Below the pieces are notes generated by a model. That model was not told the DNA's origin. It ran no database searches and was given only the letters and a program-made list of their open reading frames with translations. A stretch of 64,000 bases of DNA from Eledone cirrhosa (lineage: Eukaryota): contig OZ024742.1 of assembly GCA_964016885.1 (NCBI GenBank), forward strand, positions 134,478,001 through 134,542,000. The letters run 5' to 3'. Position 1 is the stretch's first letter; each line of letters starts with the position of its first letter. Made by a program: the position numbers and the translations under genes. Shown one piece after another: positions 3,494 to 64,000 of this stretch.

Positions 3494-3895
3494 TATAAAA
3501 TAACAGGATGCTGGACTGGTGTAAATCCTTGAAAGCTTTATTATACTATGATCATTTCAATGATCGGGTTCAGTATGAATACGGTGATATCAGGTATTCA
3601 AAATATAACAAAGGAATATAACAGATAAAATCCATGGGGTTGAGAATCAGAGACAGGAGGACGGCCGACTATTTAGCAGCTTCTACCTCGAGGGCGGCCG
3701 ACTGAGTTAGAAGCTGCTAAATAGTCGGTCGTCCTCTTGTCTCTGATGTTCATCCACATGGATTTTATCTGTTATATTCCGTTGTTATATTTTGAATACC
3801 TGATGATATCACCGGATTCATACTGAACCCGGTGATTGAAATGATCATAGTATAATAACACTTTCAAGGATTTACACCAGTCCAGCCTCCTGTTA

Positions 3896-3902
<7 letters not shown>
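3494..3902. mobile_element. Fold-back (palindromic) element with hammerhead (family B)
   Basis: ~190-bp inverted arms around a ~22-nt loop (3685-3706). The right end runs into (TA)n. Confidence 0.85.
3796..3853 (+). ncRNA. Minimal type I hammerhead ribozyme
   Basis: ATAC-CTGATGA-tATCACCGG..CCGGTGATt-GAAA-TGATCA-TA-GTAT: stem I ATAC/GTAT, palindromic stem III ATGATCAT. Confidence 0.85.
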
Positions 3903-3934
<32 letters not shown>

Positions 3935-3940
<6 letters not shown>

Positions 3941-5022
3941 TAGAGTATGTACATAGAATCATTTGATAAAATATATACACCATTTCCTCTCCCAATTAGC
4001 ATAATTAACCACATAAAAAATCAATTAGACCAGGCTATAAGAATAAAGGCTCCTATGAAGAAATAGTTGATAAATAAACTACAGCAGCTTCTTCGCGGCC
4101 GAACGCAATAGAATATTTACCCAACATTTCAACAGCATGTAGAAATTGACTAAATATACCGTCAACCACACACAATTAGGTATAAATTTAAAGTTAGAAG
4201 AAATGCGTACACTGTTACCATGATTATGTCCCTACCCTGGGGTTTCGTTCGCGTTTTGAGATATCCTATTAAGGACAAAATCTCGAGGAGCCACACCGTG
4301 AATGGTTGCCACATATATATCTGTGACTTTGTTTAGTTTGTATATATGTAATTATTTGTATTTAATAATCTCCCATTAGGTTGAGATGCAATTTGGGCAA
4401 TGTTGGGCTGCGCTTTCTAGCAACCAGCCCACTTGCCATAAGCAACTAATCAGATTCTTTCTAACTTGACCACTGCCACGTCACGATTCTTAGCCATTTT
4501 TTAATCTATTTCTGGCGGGGATCGCTTTGGAAAATTACCTGTCCTATGAGTTTGTCTCCTGATGAGTTCGAAACTCGAGATTTTATCCTTAATAGGATAT
4601 CTCAAAACGCGTACGAAACCCCAGGGTAGGGACATAATCATGGTAAGAGTGTACGCATTTCTTCTAACTTTAAATTTATACCTAATTGTTAATGGTTGAC
4701 GGTATATTTAGTCGATTTTTACATGCTGTTGAAATGTGTAAATATTCTATTGCGGTCGTCAGCGAAGAGGCTGCTGCGGTTTATTTATCAACTATTTCTT
4801 CATAGGAGCCTTTATTCTTATAGCCTGGTCTAATTGATTTTTTTATGTGGTTAATTATGGTAACTGGGAGAGAAAATGGTGTATATATTTTATCAAATGA
4901 TTCTATGGACATAATTTATGATATATTGCTCTGATTATTTAATTTATTAACTCTTAAATTCAGCCACATCGTGAATGGTTGCCACATATATATCTGTGAC
5001 TTTGTTTAGTTTGTATATATGT
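3935..5022 (+). mobile_element. Retrozyme/PLE-derived element with inverted 5' arm and terminally redundant 673-nt monomer (family C)
   Basis: 3935-4287 is inverted relative to 4574-4925. Direct repeats lie at 4289-4349 and 4962-5022. (TA)n flanks both sides. Confidence 0.85.
4553..4634 (+). ncRNA. Type I hammerhead ribozyme
   Basis: TGTCTC-CTGATGA-GTTCG..(inner hairpin)..CGTAC-GAAA-CCC-CA-GGG-TA-GGGACA: 6-bp stem I, intact core, GUA cleavage triplet. Confidence 0.92.
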
Positions 5023-5042
5023 CAATCTTTATATATATATAT

Positions 5043-5102
<60 letters not shown>

Positions 5103-7940: not shown

Positions 7941-8007
7941 TATATATATATATATATATAGTCCATTTATCGTTTTCGGTGCATCCAGCCGACTGGACTC
8001 ACTCGAT

Positions 8008-8015
8008 ATGCAAAT
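8008..8015 (+). promoter_or_regulatory. Octamer motif ATGCAAAT conserved in family F units
   Basis: Present ~88 nt upstream of the HHR core in all six HHR-bearing units (e.g. 8449, 27727). Confidence 0.35.
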
Positions 8016-8089
8016 TAGGCTGCTAACCCGTTAATATGCATACGGAAAGTATATACTTTCAGACATTCAACCATCTGGCAGGAAGGTAT

Positions 8090-8132
8090 ACGATGCTGAC
8101 GATAGCTAATAAGCTTGAAACTAGTACATCGT
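8090..8132 (+). ncRNA. Minimal type I hammerhead ribozyme (family F)
   Basis: ACGATG-CTGACGA-tAGCT-AATA-AGCTt-GAAA-CTAG-TA-CATCGT: palindromic stem III ACTAGT. Stem I can extend via CAGGA/TCCTG. Confidence 0.92.
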
Positions 8133-8530
8133 TCCTGTGTCATTTTGAACAAAAAGGTGACGTGGTTGCCTAAACACTGTACGGCGTAATTCGAACTATT
8201 TGTTTACAAACAAACAAACCGAGCATTATAATAAATGTTCGGTAAACCGATACGTGCATATATATATGTGCATGTATGTATATATATATACACACTACTG
8301 TACGTCTGTATACTTATAGGTATGTACGTATACATACATACATACTTACAATTAAGTAAGTGCCGTACTAAGAGTGAGAAATGAAATTCCGTTTCATTCT
8401 ATTCCATTTATCGTTTTCGGTGCGCCCAACCGACTGAACTGACTCGATATGCAAATTGGGCTGCTCAGCCGTTATTATGCATAAGGAAAGTATACACTTT
8501 CAGACGTTCAACCCTTTGGCAGGAAGGTAT

Positions 8531-8573
8531 AATATGCTGACGATAGCTAATAAGCTTGAAACTAGTACATCGT
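8531..8573 (+). ncRNA. Hammerhead ribozyme (family F, stem I partly mutated)
   Basis: Intact CTGACGA/GAAA-CTAG-TA core. The 5' strand of stem I reads AATATG. Confidence 0.8.
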
Positions 8574-9769
8574 TCCTGTGTCAGTGTTGAACCAAACGGT
8601 GACGTGGTTGCCTAAACACTGTACGGCGTAATTCAGGCTGTTTGTTTGTAAACAAACAAACAAACCGAGCATAAAAATAAATGTTCGGTAAACCGATAGG
8701 TGCATATATATATGTGTGCATATATGTATATATATACATACTACTGTACCTCTGTATATATATGTATGTACGCATACATGCATACATACTTACATTTAAG
8801 TAAGTGCCGTACTAAGAGTGAGAAATTAAATTTCGTTTCATTCTATTCCATTTATATATATATATGTATATATACGCTCAGGGACTCAATATATATAATA
8901 TATATATATATATATATAAGATTTATGGAGTTGTGCTTGGTTGCACAAAGTTTAGATACGAATACAATTAGTTCTCCATCAGTGATCTTCCAATTTGCAT
9001 TGGTATTTCATCGCTTTAAAAATCATATACCTCTGGTTGGTGCGAGCAATAACAAAATAAAGTTATTCGAACAAGTAAAATAGGGTGAAACGGGCGAGAA
9101 ATGTAAACAAACAACGATGGTAGTGCAACGGAAATATATGAAGAGACAACTACATGATATCTGTAAACTTAAGCTTGGTGAATTCATGGAGGAGAGATAC
9201 AGACCATCCGACATGAGTGAGATGTGAGCGAGAAAAGGGCTTCACACAGGTCAAACGGGAGGAAGTGAGAAAGGGGGAGAAGCAGAGAGTGAGTGAGTGT
9301 AAGTGTAAGGAAGAGGCCAACCGAGAGAGAGAGTGTGACTGGCAGAGGGGTTGAAAGGAAGGTGAAAGATACAGCGAGAGGGCAAGCAGTAAGAAAGAAA
9401 CAGACAATCGCAGCTGAGGAAAAAATATAAATATAAGAACAATGGAGTTTATTCTGTGGTTGCACATGGGTTACATATGAATCAAATTAGTATATATATA
9501 TATGTACTATTACATACGCTGAGGTACTCAAAATCACCCCATATGTATGCACGGGAAATATACTTCCGCCTATCTTGCAGAACATGAAATTATTGTATAG
9601 TGATCATCTATTCGTCTCCGGACATTGATTTATGAAAGCTGAACGCTTTCACGTTTCTATTGACAGTGCAGTGTAAACAAAATCAAGCGAGCTCATATAC
9701 TTCATCAGGATATCACCTTTCATAAAATATACAATTTCTCCTTTGATCTCTACTTTTGAATATATTTAC

Positions 9770-14834: not shown

Positions 14835-14844
<10 letters not shown>
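14442..14844. mobile_element. ~400-bp near-perfect palindrome, family G-related
   Basis: Arms are symmetric about ~14643. Each arm carries TTT-TTGAAAA-GCATTT-AG-AAATGC-GCAA-CCGG-TA-AAA (14570-14606 on -, 14681-14717 on +). Confidence 0.85.
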
Positions 14845-14892
<48 letters not shown>

Positions 14893-14895
<3 letters not shown>

Positions 14896-15680
14896 CGTTT
14901 CTGAATTTGTTTAGCAAGATTCTTTATCTGAAAACGTATGTTGAAACCGATAGTGTTATACTTTGGGTGGGCTATGTTGCCAATAAAAATACACGCACCA
15001 GTTGCATTCACTTCAATTTATTATAAATTTTCGGTTGGTTTGTTGGTTCCACAACCGGATGGTCGTTCATATATTGTCAGAGTTCTTTTGCCACACATTA
15101 TGTGAACTCTTCAGTGACTAGGGATACTTTTCTGTGTTTTGTGTCTCTCCTTTATTCTGTCCTACGCCAAGTTCTTTTTGTGTGTGTTGTGTGCTTAGTT
15201 TGCGCATGTGTTACATCCGGGTGTATGTGTGTGTTTTTATTTGTTTATTTATTTGTTTATTTACATGTTGCTAGCTAGTTGTGTGTGTGTTTTCCTTTTA
15301 TCCTTAATTGTAAGTTGTGATGTTGCTATTCCATTCATGTTTTCTATTTAATTTGGTTGGAGTTCATTTATGTTTATTGCCTCTGTGATTTGTCTAAACA
15401 TTGCGTCTTTTCTGTGTGTAGATTCTATTTTTATTTCTATGTTCTCTAATCTGCCCTCATGTTCTATTTTAGCATGTTGGTGGAGTACTGATGAGTCTTT
15501 TCTATCTTGGAGTTCTCGCCAGTGTTCATTTAATGCTTCTCCTATGCTACGAGCTGTCTCACCTATGTACATTATATTCTTATTTTTACATTGTCCCTCA
15601 GTACATCTTATGCTATATACTATGTTTCTAGTATTACAGTTAATATAGGAGCTTAGTTTACAGATTATGCATTTCCTTAG
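14893..15680 (-). mobile_element. Penelope-like element 3' fragment (GIY-YIG + pLTR, family H)
   Basis: YIGETARS..EH..SSVLHQH..ITEAINI in ORF 15348-15572. HHR at 15076-15118(-) has GAAA mutated to AAAA. Same family as 62290-63640. Confidence 0.88.
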
Positions 15681-16238
15681 TTTTCCTATCTGCTTCGTAG
15701 AATCAAGTCGTATCTGAGGACCTTGCGGTTTTCAGAGTCATGTTGGATCATCACATCGATTGTGCCTCGATTGTAATATGTCCAATAAATCCCATTCGTC
15801 ACAACACTGATTCTCTTGTTTTATGTACACATATATATATATATATGTGTGCGTGTGCCTGTGTCTATATGTGTGTATGTATATGTTTATATGTGTATAT
15901 GAGTGTGTATTTCTGTGCGTGTGTGTGTGTGAGAGTGAGGGCATATGTGTGTGCGAGTGTGATTGTAGGCACCTGGCCATTTCAGCGGAGCTACAAATGA
16001 GTAGCCATTGTTAGCTTAAGTGAACCTCAAACATCAGGAGTGCCCCCCCCCCTCAAGTCTGAACCTGTCGATAGAACTCTTTCTGCCTTTCTTACTCTAA
16101 ATGTAGTTTTTAAAGAATTCCCTTTTCTTTAAATCTATCAAACAATGAGCTCCAACAATCCCAATCACCACACCTCCTACCACTGGAAAAGGTATAAATA
16201 CCACCATATTACTTGGACAGAATATATATATATATATA

Positions 16239-27517: not shown

Positions 27518-27593
<76 letters not shown>

Positions 27594-27998
27594 TGCTACT
27601 GTACGTCTGTATACATATATGTATGTACGTATACATACATACTTACATTTAAGTAAGTGCCGTACTAAGAGTGAGAAATGAAATTTCATCGTTTTCGGTC
27701 CGCCTGACCAATTTAACTCACTCGATATGCAAATTAGGCTGCTCATCCGTTAATTCTCATAGGGAAAGTATATACTTTCGAATGTTCAACTATCTGACAG
27801 AAGGGTATACGGTGCTGATGATAGCTAACAATCTTGAAACTAGTACATCGTTCCTGTGTCAGTGTTGAACAAAAAGGTGACGTGGTTGCCTTAACACCGT
27901 GCGGTATAAATTCAGGCTGTTCAGTATACAAACGAACGAAGCGGGCGCTATAATATGCGTCCGCTAAACTGATGCGTACATATATGTAAGTGTACCTG

Positions 27999-28082
<84 letters not shown>

Positions 28083-28135
28083 TGCTACTGTACGTCTGTA
28101 TACATATATGTATGTACGTATACATACATACTTAC

Positions 28136-28140
<5 letters not shown>
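27444..28140 (+). mobile_element. Family F retrozyme locus 2 (>1 unit with inverted 5' cap)
   Basis: 27444-27486 is the reverse complement of the unit end. HHR at 27809-27851 reads ACGGTG-CTGATGA..GAAA-CTAG-TA-CATCGT. Confidence 0.85.
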
Positions 28141-28196
<56 letters not shown>

Positions 28197-28797: not shown

Positions 28798-31264
28798 ATT
28801 CTAGGACGGTTAAACTTCCCTAGATCCATGGACGAGTTCTCACCAGCGGTCTATGTCCCTCATTATCGCTGCCTTGTCCTGCGTCTCCATCTGACCAGTG
28901 TCTGTCATTAGGGCATCAACATACGTTAACTTAGGTCCTCCTCTTCCAGTGTGTCCATGTAGGGCCTCGCACAGGAGCACTGAGTGCAATGTAAACTCTG
29001 GATATCGGTGAGCATGTCCAGCAAACCTCAGTCTCCTCTGAGTTTTTCATCCTCAGTGTATACTGATTAATGTTCAGAGCCATCCTCAGCATTCTCGTGT
29101 ATCACCCATCCACCAGCTGAGTGAGTTTCTTGGTCAGTGTGTAAATCTCAGACCCGTACAGCAGCACAGACTCCACTATAGCAATGAAGAGGCGGATTTT
29201 GAGGTATTTACGAAGATCCGACTGCCACACCGATCTCAAGTTGTGACACGCCGCCCATGTTTTGTTTTTCCTATAAACCACATCATCTTCCGTATTCCCA
29301 ATCTTTGCTCCCAAATACAGGAAGTTCTCAACCAATTCTAGCGGCTTCCCGCCTACATTAGTGATCCCACCTGGCTTCTCAACATTCTCTACCAGATATT
29401 TTGTTTTAGTCTCATTCATTCTCATCCCCACACTCATCGACACAGTCGCAACCTCCCGCATCAAATCCTCTGCCTCCTTCCCTGTAATTGTCACCAAAAC
29501 TATCTCGTCGGCAAATTCAGCATCCGATATATTTTTCGCCTTAACTATCCTGATCTGAGCCGGTGCTACAGTAAAGCCATAATACTGGTGTTTCTCCAGG
29601 GCAAGGCGCATACGATGATAAATAGGTAGGGCGCCAATGTATCTCCCTAGAGCAATATCTCAAAGAACTCTGTCATCCCATCAGGTGTTATGACTGTAAA
29701 ATCTTCATCAGGCAGTGACGGTCTACAGTATCAAAGGCCTTCCTAAAGTCAATGTAAACCATGACCGCAGGAAGGCACTTTGCTCTAGCTCCCTCTAATA
29801 TCCACTTCAGCATCAGTATGTGACTGGTGGTTGATCTTCCCTCTCTGAAGCCCTTCTGGTTGTCCCTGAGCTTCTTCTCCATCTCAGCATGGATCCTGTT
29901 AAGAATCATCCTGTTGAGGATCTTTGCCACAAGTGACGTCAGTGAGTTCCCCCTATAGTGGTTGGTATTAGAGAGATCTCACTTCTTTGGCACTGGGACG
30001 ATGTTACTGATCCTCCACTGATTTGGGGCAACTCCTTTCTCCAGTGCCCGGTTACAGAACCCCAGGCTGATATCGTCAAAACCACACCTCTTCATCACCT
30101 CTGATGCCACTCCATCTTCTCCATGAGCCTTGCCCTCCTTGATCTTCTTGGCTCTCTGAAGCTCCTCTCTGGTGAAGAGCTCTGTCTCATTGTCCAATTC
30201 TTCGAACAGCCGCCTGATCTCCCCAGTGCGCTGGGCTGTGGAGGACGGCCCTCCTAGTAGTGTCCTCAAATTGTCTAGCCATTTCCTCTTCCCATCCTCG
30301 GGCCCTGTTCCCAAGATCTGACTCGAACACCTTCTCTTCCTCTCTGTGATCTCTTTGATGATCATCCAGCTCTCCTTACATCCAGACCTGTCAACCGCTC
30401 TCTCCCCACTTCTGATCATCTCTATCAGTCCTCCTCTCTGGCCTCAGTGTAAGCGGTACAGAGTTCTTCCCTCATCACTTCCACAGTCTCCATCCTCTCC
30501 TCCGTAGGATCAGCATAGAATTGGTCATTGGCAGCTTTCAGGTGTTCTTTGGCTGCACACACTTTTGGGTGACGTGCTTCCTTTTGTTCTTTCTCCTCGG
30601 CACCAGGGTCTTACTTGCTTCCGCCACTGCATTGGTGAAGTGCCCGTACCTCCTCGTCACACTCTCCTCAGTCCATCCAATCTCTCTCTCCTCTGACTCT
30701 CCACAAAGAGCACTGAACCTGTTACTCACTTGCACTGTGAACCTCTCTAGTAGCTTATCATCTTCCTTGAAAGCTCACAGTCATAGATTCTTCTCCGGGG
30801 CTGAGCCTTGCTCTTTCTTATGCTCACCCGGACCTCACTCATAACAAGCCGGTGATCACTACCCAGTGTACTGAAATAGTTGTATAGTTCTGTGATCAGA
30901 ACACTATTCCGCCACATTTTCCTCACCAGAATGAAATCAATCTGGGACTTGGACAGGTGTATATCTGAGATGTAGTCCACATCTTCCCTGGATTCTTCCT
31001 AAACCTTAGGTTGGTCGCTATTAAGTTCGCCTCCAGTAGGATGTCTCTCAGTAGTCTTCCATTTCGGTTGGTGTTGTTTTGGATGTACCAGCAAGGATCT
31101 TCACTGCCCTCATTACTCAGATGTGCATTGAGTCCCCCAAAACAAGCAGGATGTTGTGTGCTTGTGTGGGATTGACAGCTCTACACACCTCCTCTTCTGC
31201 ACTCACATCACTGTCTCCCTTGATTGGACTATAGGCTGAGATGTCTGTCAGACCTGGGTTTCCG
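28798..31264 (-). mobile_element. Second, degenerate copy of the RTE family at 1-2693 (includes 3' end)
   Basis: High nucleotide similarity to 1-2000, with multiple frameshifts and deletions. 5'-truncated within APE. Confidence 0.93.
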
Positions 31265-42412: not shown

Positions 42413-43417
<1,005 letters not shown>

Positions 43418-43545
43418 TTCCTCAGCCTAAAACTCCTGGAATTTCAAATTTGCCGGTCACTCGATGCGGGGAGGAGCAACTTAAGAGACACGATTTTTAA
43501 CTACGGTAAGAACATTTTTTTTTCTCATATCAAAGTTTAATGGGC

Positions 43546-43670
43546 TTTCATTGATGATTTATAAGCGCCCACCTAAATATATTCTTACATGAATGTATAT
43601 TAGGCTTCTACATAAACTGGAAATATTCTCCGAATGTGTAGAAAACTTATAATGAAACAATTGTTTGGAA
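43546..43670 (+). ncRNA. Family M hammerhead, unit 1 (C3U)
   Basis: TTTCA-TTGATGA..GAAA-CAATTG-TT-TGGAA. Confidence 0.65.
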
Positions 43671-44542
43671 AGAGAGATATATTTTAACTTTAATTATATC
43701 TCATAAAATAATACAACTGGCTTTTCCACATAATACATATTGTTAGCACCCCAAACACTTAAATTGGGTTTATATTAAAATATAACCTAATGTTTGTTGA
43801 GTGAGATGGTTACCAGTCAGAGATTAGCTTTAAACTATCTCTGTTATTGTATTAATATTTTACTCTTGATTGGCCAGAGGTGTTTATTTCCAGGTACCTT
43901 ATAAATTTGACTTTCCGTATTTATTACTGTTGTGCGATATTATGATTTTTATTGGTTGTAACTTCTCTGTTTTTTAGCCTAAGAAAATATATATATGCCT
44001 ATGTATATGATTACATGCATACATTTATTTTTTTTAATTAATTGAGTTCTTTACACGAGGAATTGATATTAGTTTTGAAATAACTAATTAACCCGCGTGT
44101 GTTTTATATTTTACTCTTAATTCGCCCGGAGATTTACATTCCCATTTGCCCTTTAAAGCATAACTTTCCGTATTTACTACGGTTACGAGATGCGGTTTCT
44201 TATTCAGGTACAACCTCTGATTTAGCCTAAGAAAATATCTATATGCGTGTGTAATTTATACACGCATATATTTATTTTTTTTATTTCAATTGAGTTCTTA
44301 ACACTTTGGATTGATAATGTTTCGAAAAAACTGTTTAACCCGCGTGTATATTACTTTTTTTCCTCCTTTCGTGGATCGTGGTTGTCTCCCCTTGCCGCTT
44401 AGTGACGCTATAATACTTCCTCAGCCAAAAAATGCTGGAATTTCAAATTTGCCGGTCGCTCGATGCAGGGAGGAGCAACTTAACAGACACGATTTTTAAC
44501 TACGGTAAGAAAATATTTTTCTTATATCAAAGTTTAATGGGC

Positions 44543-44667
44543 TTCAACTGATGATTTATAAGCGCTCACCTGAATATATTCTTACATGAATGTATATTAG
44601 GCTTCTACATAAACTGGAAATATTCTCCGAATTTGTAGAAAACTTATAATGAAACAATTGTTTGGAA
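44543..44667 (+). ncRNA. Family M hammerhead, unit 2
   Basis: TTCAA-CTGATGA..GAAA-CAATTG-TT-TGGAA, with one stem I mismatch. Confidence 0.75.
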
Positions 44668-45539
44668 AGAGAGATATATTTTAACTTTAATTATATCTCA
44701 TAAAATAATACAACTGGCTTTTCCACATAATACATATTGTTAGCACCCCAAACACTTAAATTGGGTTTATATTAAAATATAACCTAATGTTTGTTGAGTG
44801 AGATGGTTACCAGTCAGAGATTAGCTTTAAACTATCTCTGTTATTGTATTAATATTTTACTCTTGATTGGCCAGAGGTGTTTATTTCCAGGTACCTTATA
44901 AATTTGACTTTCCGTATTTATTACTGTTGTGCGATATTATGATTTTTATTGGTTGTAACTTCTCTGTTTTTTAGCCTAAGAAAATATATATATGCCTATG
45001 TATATGATTACATGCATACATTTATTTTTTTTAATTAATTGAGCTCTTTACACGAGGAATTGATATTAGTTTTGAAATAACTAATTAACCCGCGTGTGAT
45101 TTATATTTTACTCTTAATGCGCCCGGAGATTTACATTCCCATTTGCCCTTTAAAGCATAACTTTCCGTATTTACTACGGTTACGAGATGCGGTTTCTTAT
45201 TCAGGTACAACCTCTGATTTAGCCTAAGAAAATATCTATATGCGTGTGTATTTTATACACGCATATATTTATTTTTTTAATTTCAATTGAGTTCTTAACA
45301 CTTTGGATTGATAATGTTTCGAAAAAACTGTTTAACCCGCGTGTATATTACTTTTTTTCCTCCTTTCGTGGATCGTGGTTGTCTCCCCTTGCTGCTTAGT
45401 GACGCTATAATACTTCCTCAGCCAAAAAATGCTGGAATTTCAAATTTGCCGGTCGCTCGATGCAGGGAGGAGCAACTTAACAGACACGATTTTTAACTAC
45501 GGTAAGAACATTTTTTTCTTATATCAAAGTTTAATGGGC

Positions 45540-45664
45540 TTCCACTGATGATTTATAAGCGCCCACCTAAATATACTCTTACATGAATGTATATTAGGCT
45601 TCTACATAAACTGGAAATATTCTCCGAATTTGTAGAAAACTTATAATGAAACAATTGTTTGGAA
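45540..45664 (+). ncRNA. Family M hammerhead, unit 3
   Basis: TTCCA-CTGATGA-tTTATAAG..CTTATAAt-GAAA-CAATTG-TT-TGGAA: palindromic stem III ACAATTGT. Confidence 0.85.
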
Positions 45665-46532
45665 AGAGAGATATATTTTAATTTTAATTATATCTCATAC
45701 AACTGGCTTTTCCACATAATACATATTGTTAGCACCCCAAACACTTAAATTGGGTTTATATTAAAATATAACCTAATGTTTGTTGAGTGAGATGGTTACC
45801 AGCCAGAGATTAGCTTTAAACTATCTCTGTTATTGTATTAATATTTTACTCTTGATTGCCCAGAGGTGTTTATTTCCAGTTACCTTATAAATTTGACTTT
45901 CCGTATTGATTACTGTTGTGCGATATTGTGGTTTTTATTGGTTGTAACTTCTCTGTTTTTTAGCCTAAGAAAATATATATATGCCTATGTATATAATTAC
46001 ATGCATACATTTATTTTTTTTAATTAATTGAGATCTTTACACGAGGAATTGATATTAGTTTTGAAATAACTAATTAACCCGCGTGTGTTTTATATTTTAC
46101 TCTTAATTCGCCCGGAGATTTACATTCCCATTTGCCCTTTAAAGCATAACTTTCCGTATTTACTACGGTTACGAGATGCGGTTGCTTATTCAGGTACAAC
46201 CTCTGATTTAGCCTAAGAAAATATCTATATGCGTGTGTAGTTTATACACGCATATATTTATTTTTTTTAATTTCAATTGAGTTCTTAACACCTTGGATTG
46301 ATAATGTTTTCGAAAAAACTGTTTAACCCGCGTGTATATTATTTTTTTTCCTCCTTTCGTTGATCGTGGTTGTCTCCCCTTCCCGCTTAGTGACGCTATA
46401 ATACTTCCTCAGCCAAAAACTGCTGGAATTTCAAATATGCCGGTCACTCGATGCGGGGAGGAGCAACTTAACAGACACGATTTTTAACTACGGTAAGAAC
46501 ATTTTTTTTTCTTATATCAAAGTTTAATGGGC

Positions 46533-46657
46533 TTCCACTGATGATTTTTAGGCGCCCACCTAAATATATTCATATATGAATGTATATTACGCTTCTACAT
46601 AAACTGGAAATATTCTCCGAATTTGTAGAAAACTTATAATGAAACAATTGTTTGGAA
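46533..46657 (+). ncRNA. Family M hammerhead, unit 4
   Basis: TTCCA-CTGATGA..GAAA-CAATTG-TT-TGGAA. Confidence 0.8.
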
Positions 46658-46836
46658 AGAGAGATATATTTTAACTTTAATTATATCTCATAAAATAATA
46701 CAACTGGCTCTTCTAGATAATACATATTGTTAGCACCCCAAACACTTAAATTGGGTTTATATTAAAATATAACCTAATGTTTGTTGGGTGAGATGGTTAC
46801 CAGTCAGAGATTAGCTTTAAACTATCTCTGTTATTG

Positions 46837-46893
<57 letters not shown>

Positions 46894-48374: not shown

Positions 48375-48723
48375 TATGTGTGTGTCTGTGAATGTGTGTG
48401 TAGCTACTGAAACGGATAGAGGTCATCCGTCGGGACCCGATGGTTTATTGGGGCATCCAGCCGTAGAAAACCATCCAGAAACAGTCATGTACGTGTGACG
48501 TGTGAGACATGGTCACCCGACCAAACTTACCTCATGGAGATGGAGGGTTTGTGGTTATTCTGACATCAGATGTGAGAAAAATAACAGGCCCTCCATCTCG
48601 ACTCTATTTTTGAAAAGTAGAACTGCGTAACTGCTAAAGGAACCAAATAAATATATATATTTTTTTTAAAATAAGACTCCAGTCGCATTTTCGATTTCAT
48701 CTTTTTTTCTTTATATATATATA

Positions 48724-49190
48724 TCGTTTCTGAATTTTTTTAGCAAGATTCTTTGTCTGAAAACGTGTGTTGAAACCGATATTGTTATAATTTGGGAGGG
48801 TCATGTTGCCAATAAGAAACACACGCACCAGTTGCTTTCACTTCAATTTATTATAAATTTAGGAATTTATAAATTTCCGGTTGGTTGGTTGGTTCCACAA
48901 CCAGATGATTGTTCATATATTGTCAAAGTTATTTCGTCGTACATTACGTTAACTCTTCAGTGACTGAGGATTATTTTCTTTGTTTTTGTGCCTCTCCTTT
49001 GTTCTGTACTACGCCATCTTGTTTTGTGTGTTTTGTGTACTTAGTTTGCGCATGTGTTACAAACGGGTGTGTGTGTGTATTTTTATATTTGTTTGTTTAT
49101 TTGTTAATCTACACGTTACTGGTTGGTTTTTTTGTTCTATGTATGTGTGTGTTTTCATTTTGTCCTTAATTGTAAGTTGAGATGTTGCTG
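48724..49190 (-). mobile_element. Family H pLTR copy with hammerhead
   Basis: HHR at 48922-48964(-): GTCA-CTGAAGA-GTT..GAC-GAAA-TAAC-TT-TGAC. Confidence 0.85.
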
Positions 49191-49329
49191 TTCTGCATTA
49201 AAGGGAGACTACTCTTTGTCCACCTAACCTTAACTCTTTGACATTAGATATAGAACAGATACTCTATACCAATTCCTGTCAGCATGACTTGGCAAGCTAT
49301 TTAGAACACTTGTTTAACCGCTTTACTTC

Positions 49330-49363
49330 CCTCCGATGAGAGATATTATCTCGAAAATTAAGG
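49330..49363 (+). ncRNA. Minimal pLTR hammerhead (U4C variant)
   Basis: CCT-CCGATGA-GAGAT-ATT-ATCTC-GAAA-AT-TA-AGG. The second pLTR copy is at 52498-52532. Confidence 0.7.
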
Positions 49364-49489
49364 ACATTTAAATAAATTTAATGTAAAAATTAATTGTCAA
49401 CAGTATTTTTTGCATTTGCATTTTTATTCTATGTCCATACCAGCATTGTTTTGGCTTTACAAATACAAACGTTTATACATCATTACACA

Positions 49490-52065
49490 ATGCTTCAAGT
49501 GAACTATAATTTCCTCCTGTCCTTACGCCTGAGCCAGGCCCAGTTCACAACTGTAAAGAAACTCTCCCTGCTATCTGAAAAGCGCGCCAAAGACGGCTGC
49601 CAAATAAACTTCCTAAAACGATGCCTGAATAACATCATCCCCAAAATTATAAAAATCTTGCACCTACCAACATGCTTCAAATCACCAGGTCTCAAGCGAT
49701 CACTTAGCTACATACAAACATTCTGCCTAAGACAACTCATGTTACACCTACACCACACGCAGCAACAACACATACGGACTATTTCCAGTCTTGTACCACA
49801 ACTCGCTGAAAACTCTGAACCTCTGCCCAGAGTTATCTCCGCCGCTATAGACAGGTCATACCACCATCGCCGAGACTACGGGAAAATACGCCTAACGCAA
49901 ACATTTCTCAAACTCAGCACAGCTAACCGTCTTAACAACATCCCAACTCTAAGCACCAACAGAGGCGAACAAAACGGTACCAACACCGAACCTAGCGGCG
50001 CCCAGACCAACAACACACCTGACGTAAAATACCTCGTCACAGACTTTACAGGATCCCTCTCCCGAGAGGAATTAGACCACCTCAGCCTGGGTCCCAAGTT
50101 CATATTGAAACAGATACTGGACGACCAACTATGGCTCGACATAGAAACGAATTTCTGTCTGGCGGACTACCAACTAAAATGGATATCGACTCTCGGAAAC
50201 AACACCACGGAATCTAACAAAACCAGATTCCCGAAATACCAACTGGATCACCCATTCTGTCCACACCCTGCCAACCGCGAGCTTGAAGAAAAACTCTCGA
50301 GGCTAAGAAAATTCCGTATTTAAAATCTTACGGAAACAGAAGAATAATAGCCCCAAACCTCTCCAGGACAAAACAACTCGCCCTGAAGAACCTACGGAGT
50401 AGGGAACTTATATACTTACCATCCGACAAAGGCAAATAGTTTTGTGTCATCTCTCAAGCCACATACAACAACCTAGCTTTTGAACACCTAAGCGACAATG
50501 AACTATATACAGAGATCCCCGACATGACTGCAGCCCAGATCGAAAAACAGGCCAACTCCATCTTGTTCGATATCTGTAGGAGAAGGCAACTCCCAAATAA
50601 AGTTAAACTCAACTACACCACTAGAAATAGCAGACTGCCCACTTTCTACCACCTCATCAAGTCCGACAAGAATAGTACTAAGACACAAATAAGACCCACC
50701 GTCTCTAGCATAGAAGGACCCCTATGCAAAATCTCCTGGCTCCTCTCCCAGGTCCTCAAGCCTCTACTCTCCACCTTAAGCGGGCATGTCAGTAGCTTCG
50801 ACGAAGTCATACGTAGACTACACCAACTGCAGCCAGAACAAATTAAACAAAATAGATACGATTTTAGCCTCGACGTTGTTTCCCTCTACACTACAGTCCC
50901 CGCTCATCCAGCTGTCGATTTATTGACGGACTGCGGGGTCGCAGAGGACATCCACTGCTACGGCCTCCATCCGACGAACATACACCATATTTTGTTCTTC
51001 ACAGTGGACAACACGTACTTCACCATCCACCACCACACATACAGACAGACAACAGGATTACCCATGGGATCCAGCCTATCGGACCTGCTGGTCATCACCT
51101 ATATGAACCAGCTAGAATTCCGAGCCCTCAACACCTGCCATTTTCATACCTTCTTCACCCGATATGTAGATGACATACTCATGCTTACATCATCCCATGA
51201 GGAGGCAGATGAAATATACACAACATTCTCCAGCATGGACGCTAGTATACGGTTCAACAGGGAACACCCCGATGACCGCGGACCCCTATCCCGACTGGAC
51301 ATCCAACTCAGGGTAACAGAGGAAGGCAACATCCACACCTGCTTCTGTAAAAAAGCCGCCAGCAGGGACCTGTTCGTACATTTCAGATCAGCCCTCCCAG
51401 CCGGCGCTAAGTTCGGATACATAAGGAACGAACTACGACGTATCCGGAACAAATGCACCGACGCTAGAGACCGAGACACACACACCACACGTTTCCTGGA
51501 AGTACTCAAACTGAACGGATATCCGACATCCACCACAAACCGTGCCAGAAAGAACAGAGGACACCACACCCGAGGCACTAACACTTGCTTCCTGAAGCTC
51601 CCACACTTCAGTGACGAACAAGAACAGCCATCCGCAGAGCTATAAGAGGAGAGGGACTAGATATCCAACTAGCCCACTCAGGACGTTCTCTACGCGGACA
51701 GCTAACCAAAAGACACTCCACCAGACATGACAACCGCTGCAGGCTAGCCAACTGCCCCATCAACGACACAGACATATGCCACCAGGCTTACGTCGTATAC
51801 AAACTAGAGTGCGACAAATGCTGTAACTTCTACATAGGTAGCACCACCAGACCACTCCACATAAGAATAAAAAAATACCTAAATACAAACGCTTCCTCAT
51901 TTAAGAAACACCTAGTGAAATGCAAAAACACCGACAAAACTATAACAGTTAGGATAGAAACTAAGGAAAGAAACCTCGGCAATCTTAGAATTAAGGAAGC
52001 ACTAATTATAGACAAAACACTTCAACCAATCAATAATAGACTAGATCTCAACACCCAATTTATAA
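49490..52065 (+). pseudogene. PLE RT/GIY-YIG ORF, disrupted
   Basis: Likely ATG at 49490. Breaks near 50320, 50440 and 51620 split it across ORFs 49394-50323, 50524-51645 and a downstream frame. Confidence 0.85.
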
Positions 52066-52643
52066 CTTGATAGAGCATAAGGCCCCATAATTACACCCCA
52101 TCCCACACACACGCACACGCACACACACACGTATGCACACACATACATGCACACACACACATACACACACACACACACGCTTACATCTCCACTTATTCTC
52201 TCTCCCACACACATACGCACACAAAGACCAGTTCTAAGACGAGAGAGCACCTATCCCCCACATTTACGTATAGACATATCTTCTCACACTCACACACATA
52301 GACACACATACTTACACCTTCACTCATTCTCCCACACACTTAAACATACATGTACAAAACTCCTTTTAAAGGGGGACTACTCTTTATCCACCTAACCATA
52401 ACTCTTTGACATTAGAGATGGAACAGATACTCTATACCATTTCCTGTCAGCATGACTTGGCAAGCTATTTAGAACACTGGTTTAACCGCTTTACTTCCCT
52501 CCGAAGAAGAGATATTATCTCGAAAATTAAGGACATTTAAATACATATAAGGTAAAAGACTAATTGTCAACAATATCTTTTGCATTTGCATTTTTATTCT
52601 TTGTCCATACCTGCATTGTTTTGGGTTTACAAATACAAACGTT

Positions 52644-52697
<54 letters not shown>

Positions 52698-53586: not shown

Positions 53587-55918
<2,332 letters not shown>

Positions 55919-58295: not shown

Positions 58296-58467
58296 TGCGG
58301 CAAATAATCTATATCATTTGTCTATTATTTCTTCATAAATACATTTTAAACCCCCATTTAAATGATTTTTTATGTGGTTAATTTATACTCATTGGGAGAG
58401 GAAATGCTGTATATATTTTATGTAATGATTCTTTCGACTTACATTTATATATATATATATATATATA

Positions 58468-62260: not shown

Positions 62261-62289
62261 TGCTGGAATTGTGTCTAATGTAGAAACAC

Positions 62290-63640
62290 TTATTTACTGT
62301 AGAGTCTGATCCGCAAGAGAACAGTCTGGAATTAGAGAAAAACACCATGGAAAGCATCCAGCATATAGCTAACTCCATCCACCAGAGTATTATAGTAACT
62401 ACAGAATACCCAACCAAACACCCCAACCATCGTTTACCTGTACTGGACACAGAGCTCTGGTTAGAAACCATTAATAACAAAAAACAAATCCTCCATTCCC
62501 ATTATGCCAAGCCCATGACTTCCAAATATCTGGACCACACCAAAATCAACATACTGATTGTGGATTTGGTACGGATCCCGCATGTGCAACCCCAAAAAAC
62601 TAGAGAGACACATAGAACACTTCATCCACCGTATGCATTTCTCTGGTTACAATCAGAGACATAAAATCAGAGTATATAGAGGAGCCAGAACCAAATAGGA
62701 AAAAATGGTAAATAATGATACAAATGGGATCTGCCCATTGTATAGGAGCAAATTTTGGAATAGAATAGAAAGAACTAGGAATAACGTTAATAGAATAAAC
62801 TCATGGTATGATAGCAATAAATACCAGAGTGTAATGTTAATCAATACAACCCCTACAAGGGCCCTAGATAAACTAAACTCAATATTAAGATAGTAGAAAG
62901 ACCAGGTCCCTCCATAAAAACACTTATTAGCAATACATACCCTTTTCAAAGACCTCCCTCTATAGATAAGAAATGTATAATATGTAATCTAAGCCCCCAT
63001 ATTAACTGTAAAACTAGAAATGTAGTATATAGCATAATATGTACTGAAGGACAATGTAGAGATAATAAAATAGTGTACATAGGTGCAACAGCTCGTAGTA
63101 TAGAATCATCTGTACTCCACCAACATGCTAAAATAGAACATAAGGGTAAATTAGAGAACATAGAAATGAAAATAGAATCTACACACAGAAAAGACGGAAT
63201 GTTTAGACAAATCAGAGAGGTAATAAACATAAATGAACTCCAACCAAAATTAAAAATTACAATTAAATAGAAAACATGAATGGAATAGGAACATCGCAAC
63301 TTACAATTAAGGACAAAATGAAAACACACACACACATAGAACAAACAACCAACCAGTAACATGTAAATAACTAAGCACACAATACACAAAAACAAGATGG
63401 CGTAGGACAGAACAAAGTAGAGGCACAAAAACAAAGAAAATAATCCCCAGTCACTGAAGAGGTCACATAATGTGTGACGAAAGAACTTTGACAATACATG
63501 AACAATCGTCCGGTTGTGCACCCAACCAACCAACCGGAAATGTATAAATTCTTAAATTTATAAATTTAATTTATAATAAATTGGAGTGAAAGCAACTGGT
63601 TCGTGTGTTTCTTATTGGCAATATGACCCTAGCATAACAA
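62290..63640 (+). mobile_element. Penelope-like element 3' part (RT C-terminus, GIY-YIG, pLTR, family H)
   Basis: RLPVLDTELW..HYAKP and VVYSI..YIGATARS. HHR at 63450-63492: GTCA-CTGAAGA-g-GTCACA..TGTGAC-GAAA-GAAC-TT-TGAC. Confidence 0.88.
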
Positions 63641-63666
63641 TATATATATATATATATATACATATT

Positions 63667-63723
<57 letters not shown>

Positions 63724-64000
63724 ATATATGGATTTTCTATAAATCAGCTTTTCCATATTCAGGGCGGTTACCAGTAAGAATAGTATCTTGATATCATGTG
63801 TAGTATCTAATTAGAATTAAAATCTTATTTTCATTTCACGCATACCTATGTGATGACCCAAACATACGTTGATATAAAATTGCGTTTTTTTTCTTTCCCC
63901 ATCTTATTTTTTCTGTTTCTATACGGATGTTTGTATATAAAATGCGTTCAGACGAACTAAAAGAGGAGCAGTAGGGGGTGTCAAAGAAAAAGCTAGAAAT

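Follow-up and report, generated by a model that had tools for sequence, protein, structure and literature searches.

The locus described here is an old copy of a common repeat that encodes no protein and carries a predicted self-cleaving hammerhead ribozyme, and it is a fresh example of the published animal retrozyme class. It lies in a 64-kb window (the whole stretch of DNA that was analysed), and its features are displayed in Table 1. In the reading preferred here, to which a probability of about one half is given, the ORF-less unit was inserted once by the RT and endonuclease of a Penelope-like element (PLE), supplied in trans, with an uncleaved head-to-tail transcript as template. Being one decayed copy from a class already known, the finding is modest.

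Table 1. Coordinates of the features of the locus and of a related fragment in the window
Feature	Positions	Strand	Remarks
Left (TA)n run	3904..3938	.	likely left half of target microsatellite; overlaps 3' end of arm
Inverted 5'-truncated arm	3933..4287	-	copy of unit 4574-4926; 3' end is the main 3' end of the family
Terminal redundancy, copy 1 (~74 nt)	4288..4361	+	blunt junction with arm at 4287/4288
ORF-less unit, 673 nt	4289..4961	+	35% GC
Type I hammerhead	4553..4634	+	core 4559-4565 and 4615-4618; predicted cleavage after 4628; mismatch at 4612
TA-phase motif, 6 nt	4921..4926	+	at main 3' end of family
Terminal redundancy, copy 2	4961..5034	+	last 5 nt are a TA-phase motif fusing with TA run
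Right (TA)n run	5029..5102	.	likely right half of target
Diverged 5'-truncated fragment, same family	58316..58454	+	unit 4783-4926; 3' end in (TA)n

Anatomy of the locus and its hammerhead

In a self-comparison, the 354-bp arm is the reverse complement of the corresponding part of the unit with 93% identity (332 matches, 20 substitutions and 4 gap columns in an alignment of 356; BLAST E 4e-152). The initial annotation had described an inverted copy of about 350 bp cut inside stem II, and indeed the arm begins at 4574 within helix II (4566-4614); it is therefore without the CUGAUGA core, and it crosses the cleavage site intact. The junction of arm and unit is at a palindromic hexamer within a hairpin. 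The 3' ends of both point outward into (TA)n, and because such runs are present on both sides no target duplication is definable. A 673-nt monomer with 61-nt terminal repeats had also been reported. The spacing of 673 was recovered, with 60/61 identity between 4289-4349 and 4962-5022, but the repeat is longer than first described: it extends to about 74 nt with 6 mismatches (8%; the arm is similar, 6%). This extension was judged with the read-majority bases of public reads at 4352, 4354, 4358, 4961 and 5023, which lengthen the repeat and place the end of the element near 5034, not 5022.

The 3' ends of the unit occur at two phases, 4926 and 4361/5034, which are 108 nt apart. The diverged fragment, initially placed at about 58360-58440, is 76-79% identical to the unit and stops at the same 4926 point. 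Among 21 read-variable positions in the range of the arm, both arm and unit carry a non-majority base at 9, the arm carries the majority base at 11, and neither applies at 1; the common non-majority bases would fit a single source lineage with subsequent decay. The locus as a whole consists of 1.1 units with one intact hammerhead, and two consecutive HHR units, the 'active' criterion of Li 2026, are not present here. With one hammerhead only, neither a monomer nor a circle could be released from it by double self-cleavage.

The core of a type I hammerhead consists of CUGANGA, GAAA and NUH, joined by three helices. All of these, with an open helix I, are found at 4553-4634. Helix I has 6 bp, with 4553-4558 paired with 4629-4634 and C3 at 4559, and helix II is unusually long (49 nt), followed by GAAA. 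Helix III is made up of an A-U pair and 2 further bp, closed by a 4-nt loop that is not palindromic; the GUA cleavage triplet has its last base at 4628, after which cleavage had been predicted. The core motif in the accessible text of PMC4209133 agrees with CUGANGA/GAAA/NUH. The initial description of a 'canonical' hammerhead therefore holds for the core and for helices I and III, which fit the metazoan form described in the portions seen of PMC4209133 and PMC7229834; it does not hold for the 49-nt helix II or for Rfam, where no hammerhead was matched at the gathering score or at E<=10, just hairpin and TA noise at E<=10. The long helix II is probably behind this miss. Our descriptor finds 5 cores in the window, whereas 200 block-wise dinucleotide shuffles gave 0.02 on average and none of them contained a motif as strong as the one at 4559; the descriptor tolerates one helix II mismatch, a tolerance added after a stricter version (4 cores) missed the 4559 site.

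In the window copy the MFE structure differs from the active fold (MFE z -2.1; 5/200 shuffles equally stable). Position 4612 is a U-U mismatch in this copy and disfavours the active fold, which has -23.5 kcal/mol versus -26.8 kcal/mol for the MFE structure and P about 0.0007. The arm and most reads have A at this position (X5 112/124; X6 86/86), and with this read-majority base the values become -28.0 versus -28.6 kcal/mol (gap 0.6) and P about 0.09. Since the mismatch lowers the predicted active fraction, the window hammerhead is likely a weakened copy of the ribozyme.

The family, its coding capacity and its neighbours

The unit was compared with reads and contigs of four of seven listed runs (X1, X4, X5 and X6) from two organisms, A and B; the search for sequencing runs gave no RNA run among those listed. 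On the unit were placed 2312 + 46 contigs and 3153 + 2596 reads, mostly under 95% identical. The best runs contain 38% of the sampled words, so these sequences represent other copies or relatives. The 673-nt family is large, aged and high in copy number, and is present in two organisms. At 4926, 191 X5 and 156 X6 reads pass from the unit into TA repeats, against a depth of 450 (X5) and 361 (X6) at position 4914; this exit point is not an AATT site. RAD depth and molecule ends are shaped by AATT sites, which points to a restriction digest; the molecule ends at 4390/4393, 4533, 4684, 4835 and 4944, together with low-agreement loose ends, all lie at AATT sites and were rejected as biological signals.

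The seam from end to start is spanned in other copies, namely X1 record 8 (4898-5005) and X4 record 16 (4881-4984), and a 1-nt deletion at 4956 is carried by 7 X1 contigs and 6/11 X6 reads, all crossing the seam. Additionally, the repeat continues into 4350 and beyond in X1 record 1 and X4 records 9-11. The 673-nt family closes head-to-tail on itself without an intervening ORF. The recurrence of this seam indicates that the locus is not merely a one-off truncated pLTR; attachment of all longer copies to an ORF, the outcome named beforehand as contrary to the initial reading, was not seen among these copies. The whole unit or a dimer is spanned by none of the short records listed, so that tandem source loci are presumed rather than observed; besides these records there are 213 variants, 463 loose ends and 2351 pieces. 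An X1 joint from 4982 to 4315 was rejected as evidence of a dimer because both sides may lie inside the terminal repeat. Exact-pattern matches in a metagenome contig (L001) and a viral contig (L002) were attributed to chance, their flanks being dissimilar, and a second exact-pattern viral scan gave 0 matches. Depth is without a step at the 4628/4629 cleavage site (X5 bins 4589-4663: 134, 104, 105). X1 contig depth falls from 36,665 (4951) to 247 (4957), which could reflect indels or a branch to other sequence, and read depth climbs between 4314 and 4413.

As initially stated, the unit is non-coding. Its longest stop-free frame is 68 aa, and a six-frame search of the locus against 119 Penelope-type proteins, all relatives of one Penelope RT, gave no similarity (best E 0.42); the window's own GIY-YIG region, as positive control, gave 63 matches. 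An RT or GIY-YIG ORF linked to the unit is absent from the locus. The unit has the properties expected of a retrozyme, lacking coding capacity and having a GC content below 50% (35%). Compared with the pLTR of the window's Penelope it scored 33, which is not above shuffles (mean 28.6, max 40), and among 16 scores against pLTRs and PLE ends in the window, 2 were slightly over the shuffle maximum (42 vs 38 and 46 vs 44) with no clear alignment. Among the PLEs of the window, then, no autonomous partner of the unit was identified. A likeness seen by eye between the inner part of helix II and a Penelope pLTR hairpin near 49340 was unsupported by alignment.

The window is repeat-rich animal DNA with four other hammerhead-associated or Penelope families, so the element is ordinary for this genome. 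Adjoining the locus, a head-to-head foldback of an unrelated family (3494-3902; arms 90% identical) has a hammerhead at 3800 with a palindromic helix III, a left-arm core with a 3-nt deletion, and both outer ends at the same T-rich/TA motif; it is likely a second inverted PLE-type insertion. At 43409-46845 a 997-nt unit is repeated 3.4 times (96% identity, (TA)n flanks, no ORF of at least 120 aa). Each copy has a hammerhead-like motif with a helix II of about 96 nt and a palindromic helix III, and the one at 45545 passes the descriptor; if an active large retrozyme is sought, this array is more promising than the 673-nt locus. Dimers and trimers of a unit of about 445 nt, ending in (TA)n, occur at 7957-8864, 27549-28190 and 53602-55081. 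Their compact hammerheads pass the descriptor at 8096 and 53858, with similar motifs at 8537, 27815, 54309 and 54752, and the family would be a typical non-LTR retrozyme family.

A decayed Penelope with broken frames occupies 49198-52647, with RT (PF00078, E 3e-13) and GIY-YIG (E 8e-4) domains, pLTRs at 49198-49477 and 52366-52647 (93%), a 3' end in (TA)n and, by eye, a variant-core hammerhead-like motif near 49335. Among named proteins, its RT is closest to one from Octopus bimaculoides, with 57% identity across 46% of the query, which hints weakly at a cephalopod source. The 3' ends of another PLE-like family are found at 14838-15731, 48712-49193 and 62284-63729, with GIY-YIG-like remnants seen by eye, no Pfam match, and core motifs at 15114(-), 48960(-) and 63454(+). 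LINE copies with endonuclease and RT domains lie at 74-2554 and 29102-31263 (92% identical).

Origin of the insertion

A partial tandem and an adjacent inverted 5'-truncated copy are both present at the locus, (TA)n lies on both sides, and family reads pass at 4926 into TA. These are features of PLE insertions in the available text of Craig 2021 (PMC8557442), where partial tandems, adjacent inverted 5'-truncated copies and a (TA)n preference are described, and they bear out the earlier proposal of a PLE-type layout with an inverted truncated copy at the 5' side. The same window also contains the decayed Penelope, which has RT and GIY-YIG domains and whose pLTRs end in (TA)n. As far as seen in Frangieh 2024 (PMC11167929), at AT-rich DNA a PLE protein nicks the two strands and extends them from internal starts, and uncleaved RNA is the dominant PLE substrate in vitro.

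A possible course of events can be proposed from these observations. Within a (TA)n tract, the two strands would be nicked by a GIY-YIG endonuclease, and the resulting 3' ends would prime cDNA internally on the family RNA, each at a short TA-phase motif (4926 and 4361/5034). One cDNA would run through 1.1 units, the other would halt in the hairpin of the long helix II, and their head-to-head joining would be followed by about 3-4% decay in each copy, likely weakening the ribozyme. TA-phase motifs occupy 1.2% (6-mers, 8/673) and 1.9% (5-mers, 13/673) of unit positions; shorter, TAT-like template motifs are also the end points of three other families of the window, namely the Penelope, the 445-nt and the 997-nt family. 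The ends on such motifs suggest microhomology priming, a post hoc interpretation that conflicts with the portion seen of Frangieh 2024 (PMC11167929), where PAc initiates at sites non-homologous to the cut DNA; the motifs could alternatively be relics of earlier targets.

The nature of the template is constrained by the cleavage site. Both copies are intact across 4628/4629, so the template was uncleaved or re-ligated, and a cleaved linear monomer is excluded unless the RT jumped templates. An uncleaved linear tandem transcript is preferred, at roughly even odds. A re-ligated template would arise if tandem transcripts self-cleaved, a host ligase closed a 673-nt circle and the PLE RT copied it about 1.1 times; this is the circular template put forward in the initial annotation and the cycle published for retrozymes, and we regard it as a tentative possibility. 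It would account for the intact site in arm and unit and for 3' ends at two phases 108 nt apart; retrozymes of coral, mussel and axolotl accumulate as circles according to the text seen of PMC7229834, and the active fold comes within 0.6 kcal/mol of the MFE with the read-majority base. However, no observation requires a circle, since a linear tandem transcript gives the same 1.1-unit copy. Folded as a circle, the unit is only slightly more stable than 25 shuffles (-155.0 vs -145.1 +/- 5.2 kcal/mol; z -1.9), a single 3' end (4926) dominates, and HHR cleavage is dispensable for a PLE in vitro in the text seen of PMC11167929. The more specific version, in which a PLE RT copied a ribozyme-made RNA circle primed at varied phases by nicked (TA)n annealing to TA motifs, is doubtful.

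It is unlikely that the locus is a 5'-truncated autonomous PLE that lost its ORF, with the redundancy belonging to its pLTR or 3' region and the ORF-less copies being debris. According to the accessible text of PMC4209133, PLE copies are for the most part 5'-truncated and PLE-type hammerheads mainly solo motifs, some of them in opposite-strand pairs 100-700 bp apart; also, the X1 depth fall at 4951-4957 and the rise at 4314-4413 could hide a branch. Yet that fall coincides with indel variation at 4956-4957, and in other copies, including those of the second organism, the post-ribozyme region passes directly to the pre-ribozyme region. Six frames contain no remnant of a PLE protein as judged with the panel of 119 relatives of one Penelope RT, and the 6-bp helix I and non-palindromic helix III loop differ from the minimal PLE type of PMC4209133, as far as described there. 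Still far less probable is a later origin of arm and redundancy in DNA around a simple monomer, by fold-back replication, local duplication or assembly artefact. The palindromic hexamer in a hairpin at the arm junction would suit it, but, like independent insertions, the arm terminates in (TA)n at precisely the main 3' end of the family, and a second head-to-head hammerhead element of another family adjoins. Furthermore, the arm has the read-majority base at 11 of the 20 substitutions against the unit and is therefore no assembly echo.

Comparison with known systems

Mobilization of ORF-less type I hammerhead repeats by PLEs via circular RNA was proposed by Cervera and de la Pena 2020 (PMC7229834), and the retrozyme model is reviewed in PMC7761336. 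Li, Clavereau and Pollet 2026 (bioRxiv 10.64898/2026.07.22.740005) tied retrozymes to pLTRs and described units of 51-972 bp, including monomers; there, in the text seen, the link to PLEs is drawn from pLTR phylogeny and from co-occurrence. This link gains structural support from an ORF-less hammerhead family that bears a PLE insertion signature (inverted truncated arm, partial tandem, TA target). A genome-wide map of 3' end phases could discriminate between circle and linear template and test microhomology priming. If the RNA-circle reading is true, the long-helix-II hammerhead families of this genome would form a natural test set for circRNA retrotransposition, which has so far only been proposed. 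On octopus or cephalopod hammerheads, the literature seen yielded only 235 Rfam hammerhead loci in giant squid. Neither the 673-nt family nor inverted arms at retrozyme insertions were found described in open main texts, which makes this a weak gap.

From the available portions of these papers, the family resembles metazoan non-LTR retrozymes in its type I hammerhead, lack of an ORF, GC <50%, head-to-tail unit and co-occurrence with PLEs; the head-to-tail repetition is present at the family level, in the 74-nt redundancy and the seam of other copies. With 673 nt, the unit fits the 51-972 bp reported in Li 2026, where monomer derivatives are described, but is longer than the 170-400 nt RNAs of PMC7229834; its 49-nt helix II is a further difference from retrozymes. 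The 1.1-mer with one ribozyme falls short of the 'active' two-HHR criterion of Li 2026, and an inverted arm such as that at the locus is not described in the text seen of PMC7229834 or bioRxiv 10.64898/2026.07.22.740005.

Insertions of Penelope/Poseidon, Neptune and Naiad share with the locus the partial tandem, the 5'-side inverted truncated copy and the microsatellite target, and also have one end extended past the other; the locus differs in being without an RT/EN ORF and in an extension of 108 nt versus a 30-40 bp tail (PMC8557442, as accessible). Non-autonomous Chlamys and MRC1 PLEs likewise form pLTRs and head-to-tail copies (Craig 2021, PMC8557442, same portions), and a pair of a non-autonomous and an autonomous PLE is active in Chlamydomonas according to the text seen of PMC9977147. 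As far as PMC11167929 was available, the PAc Poseidon of Anolis is similar in its internal RT starts, AT-rich target, extension of both strands and hammerhead upstream of the 3' end, whereas PAc starts at non-homologous sites and the locus ends on 5-6-nt TA-phase motifs. Judged from its sequence, the element appears to act like a non-autonomous PLE or a retrozyme, and may be regarded as a candidate member.
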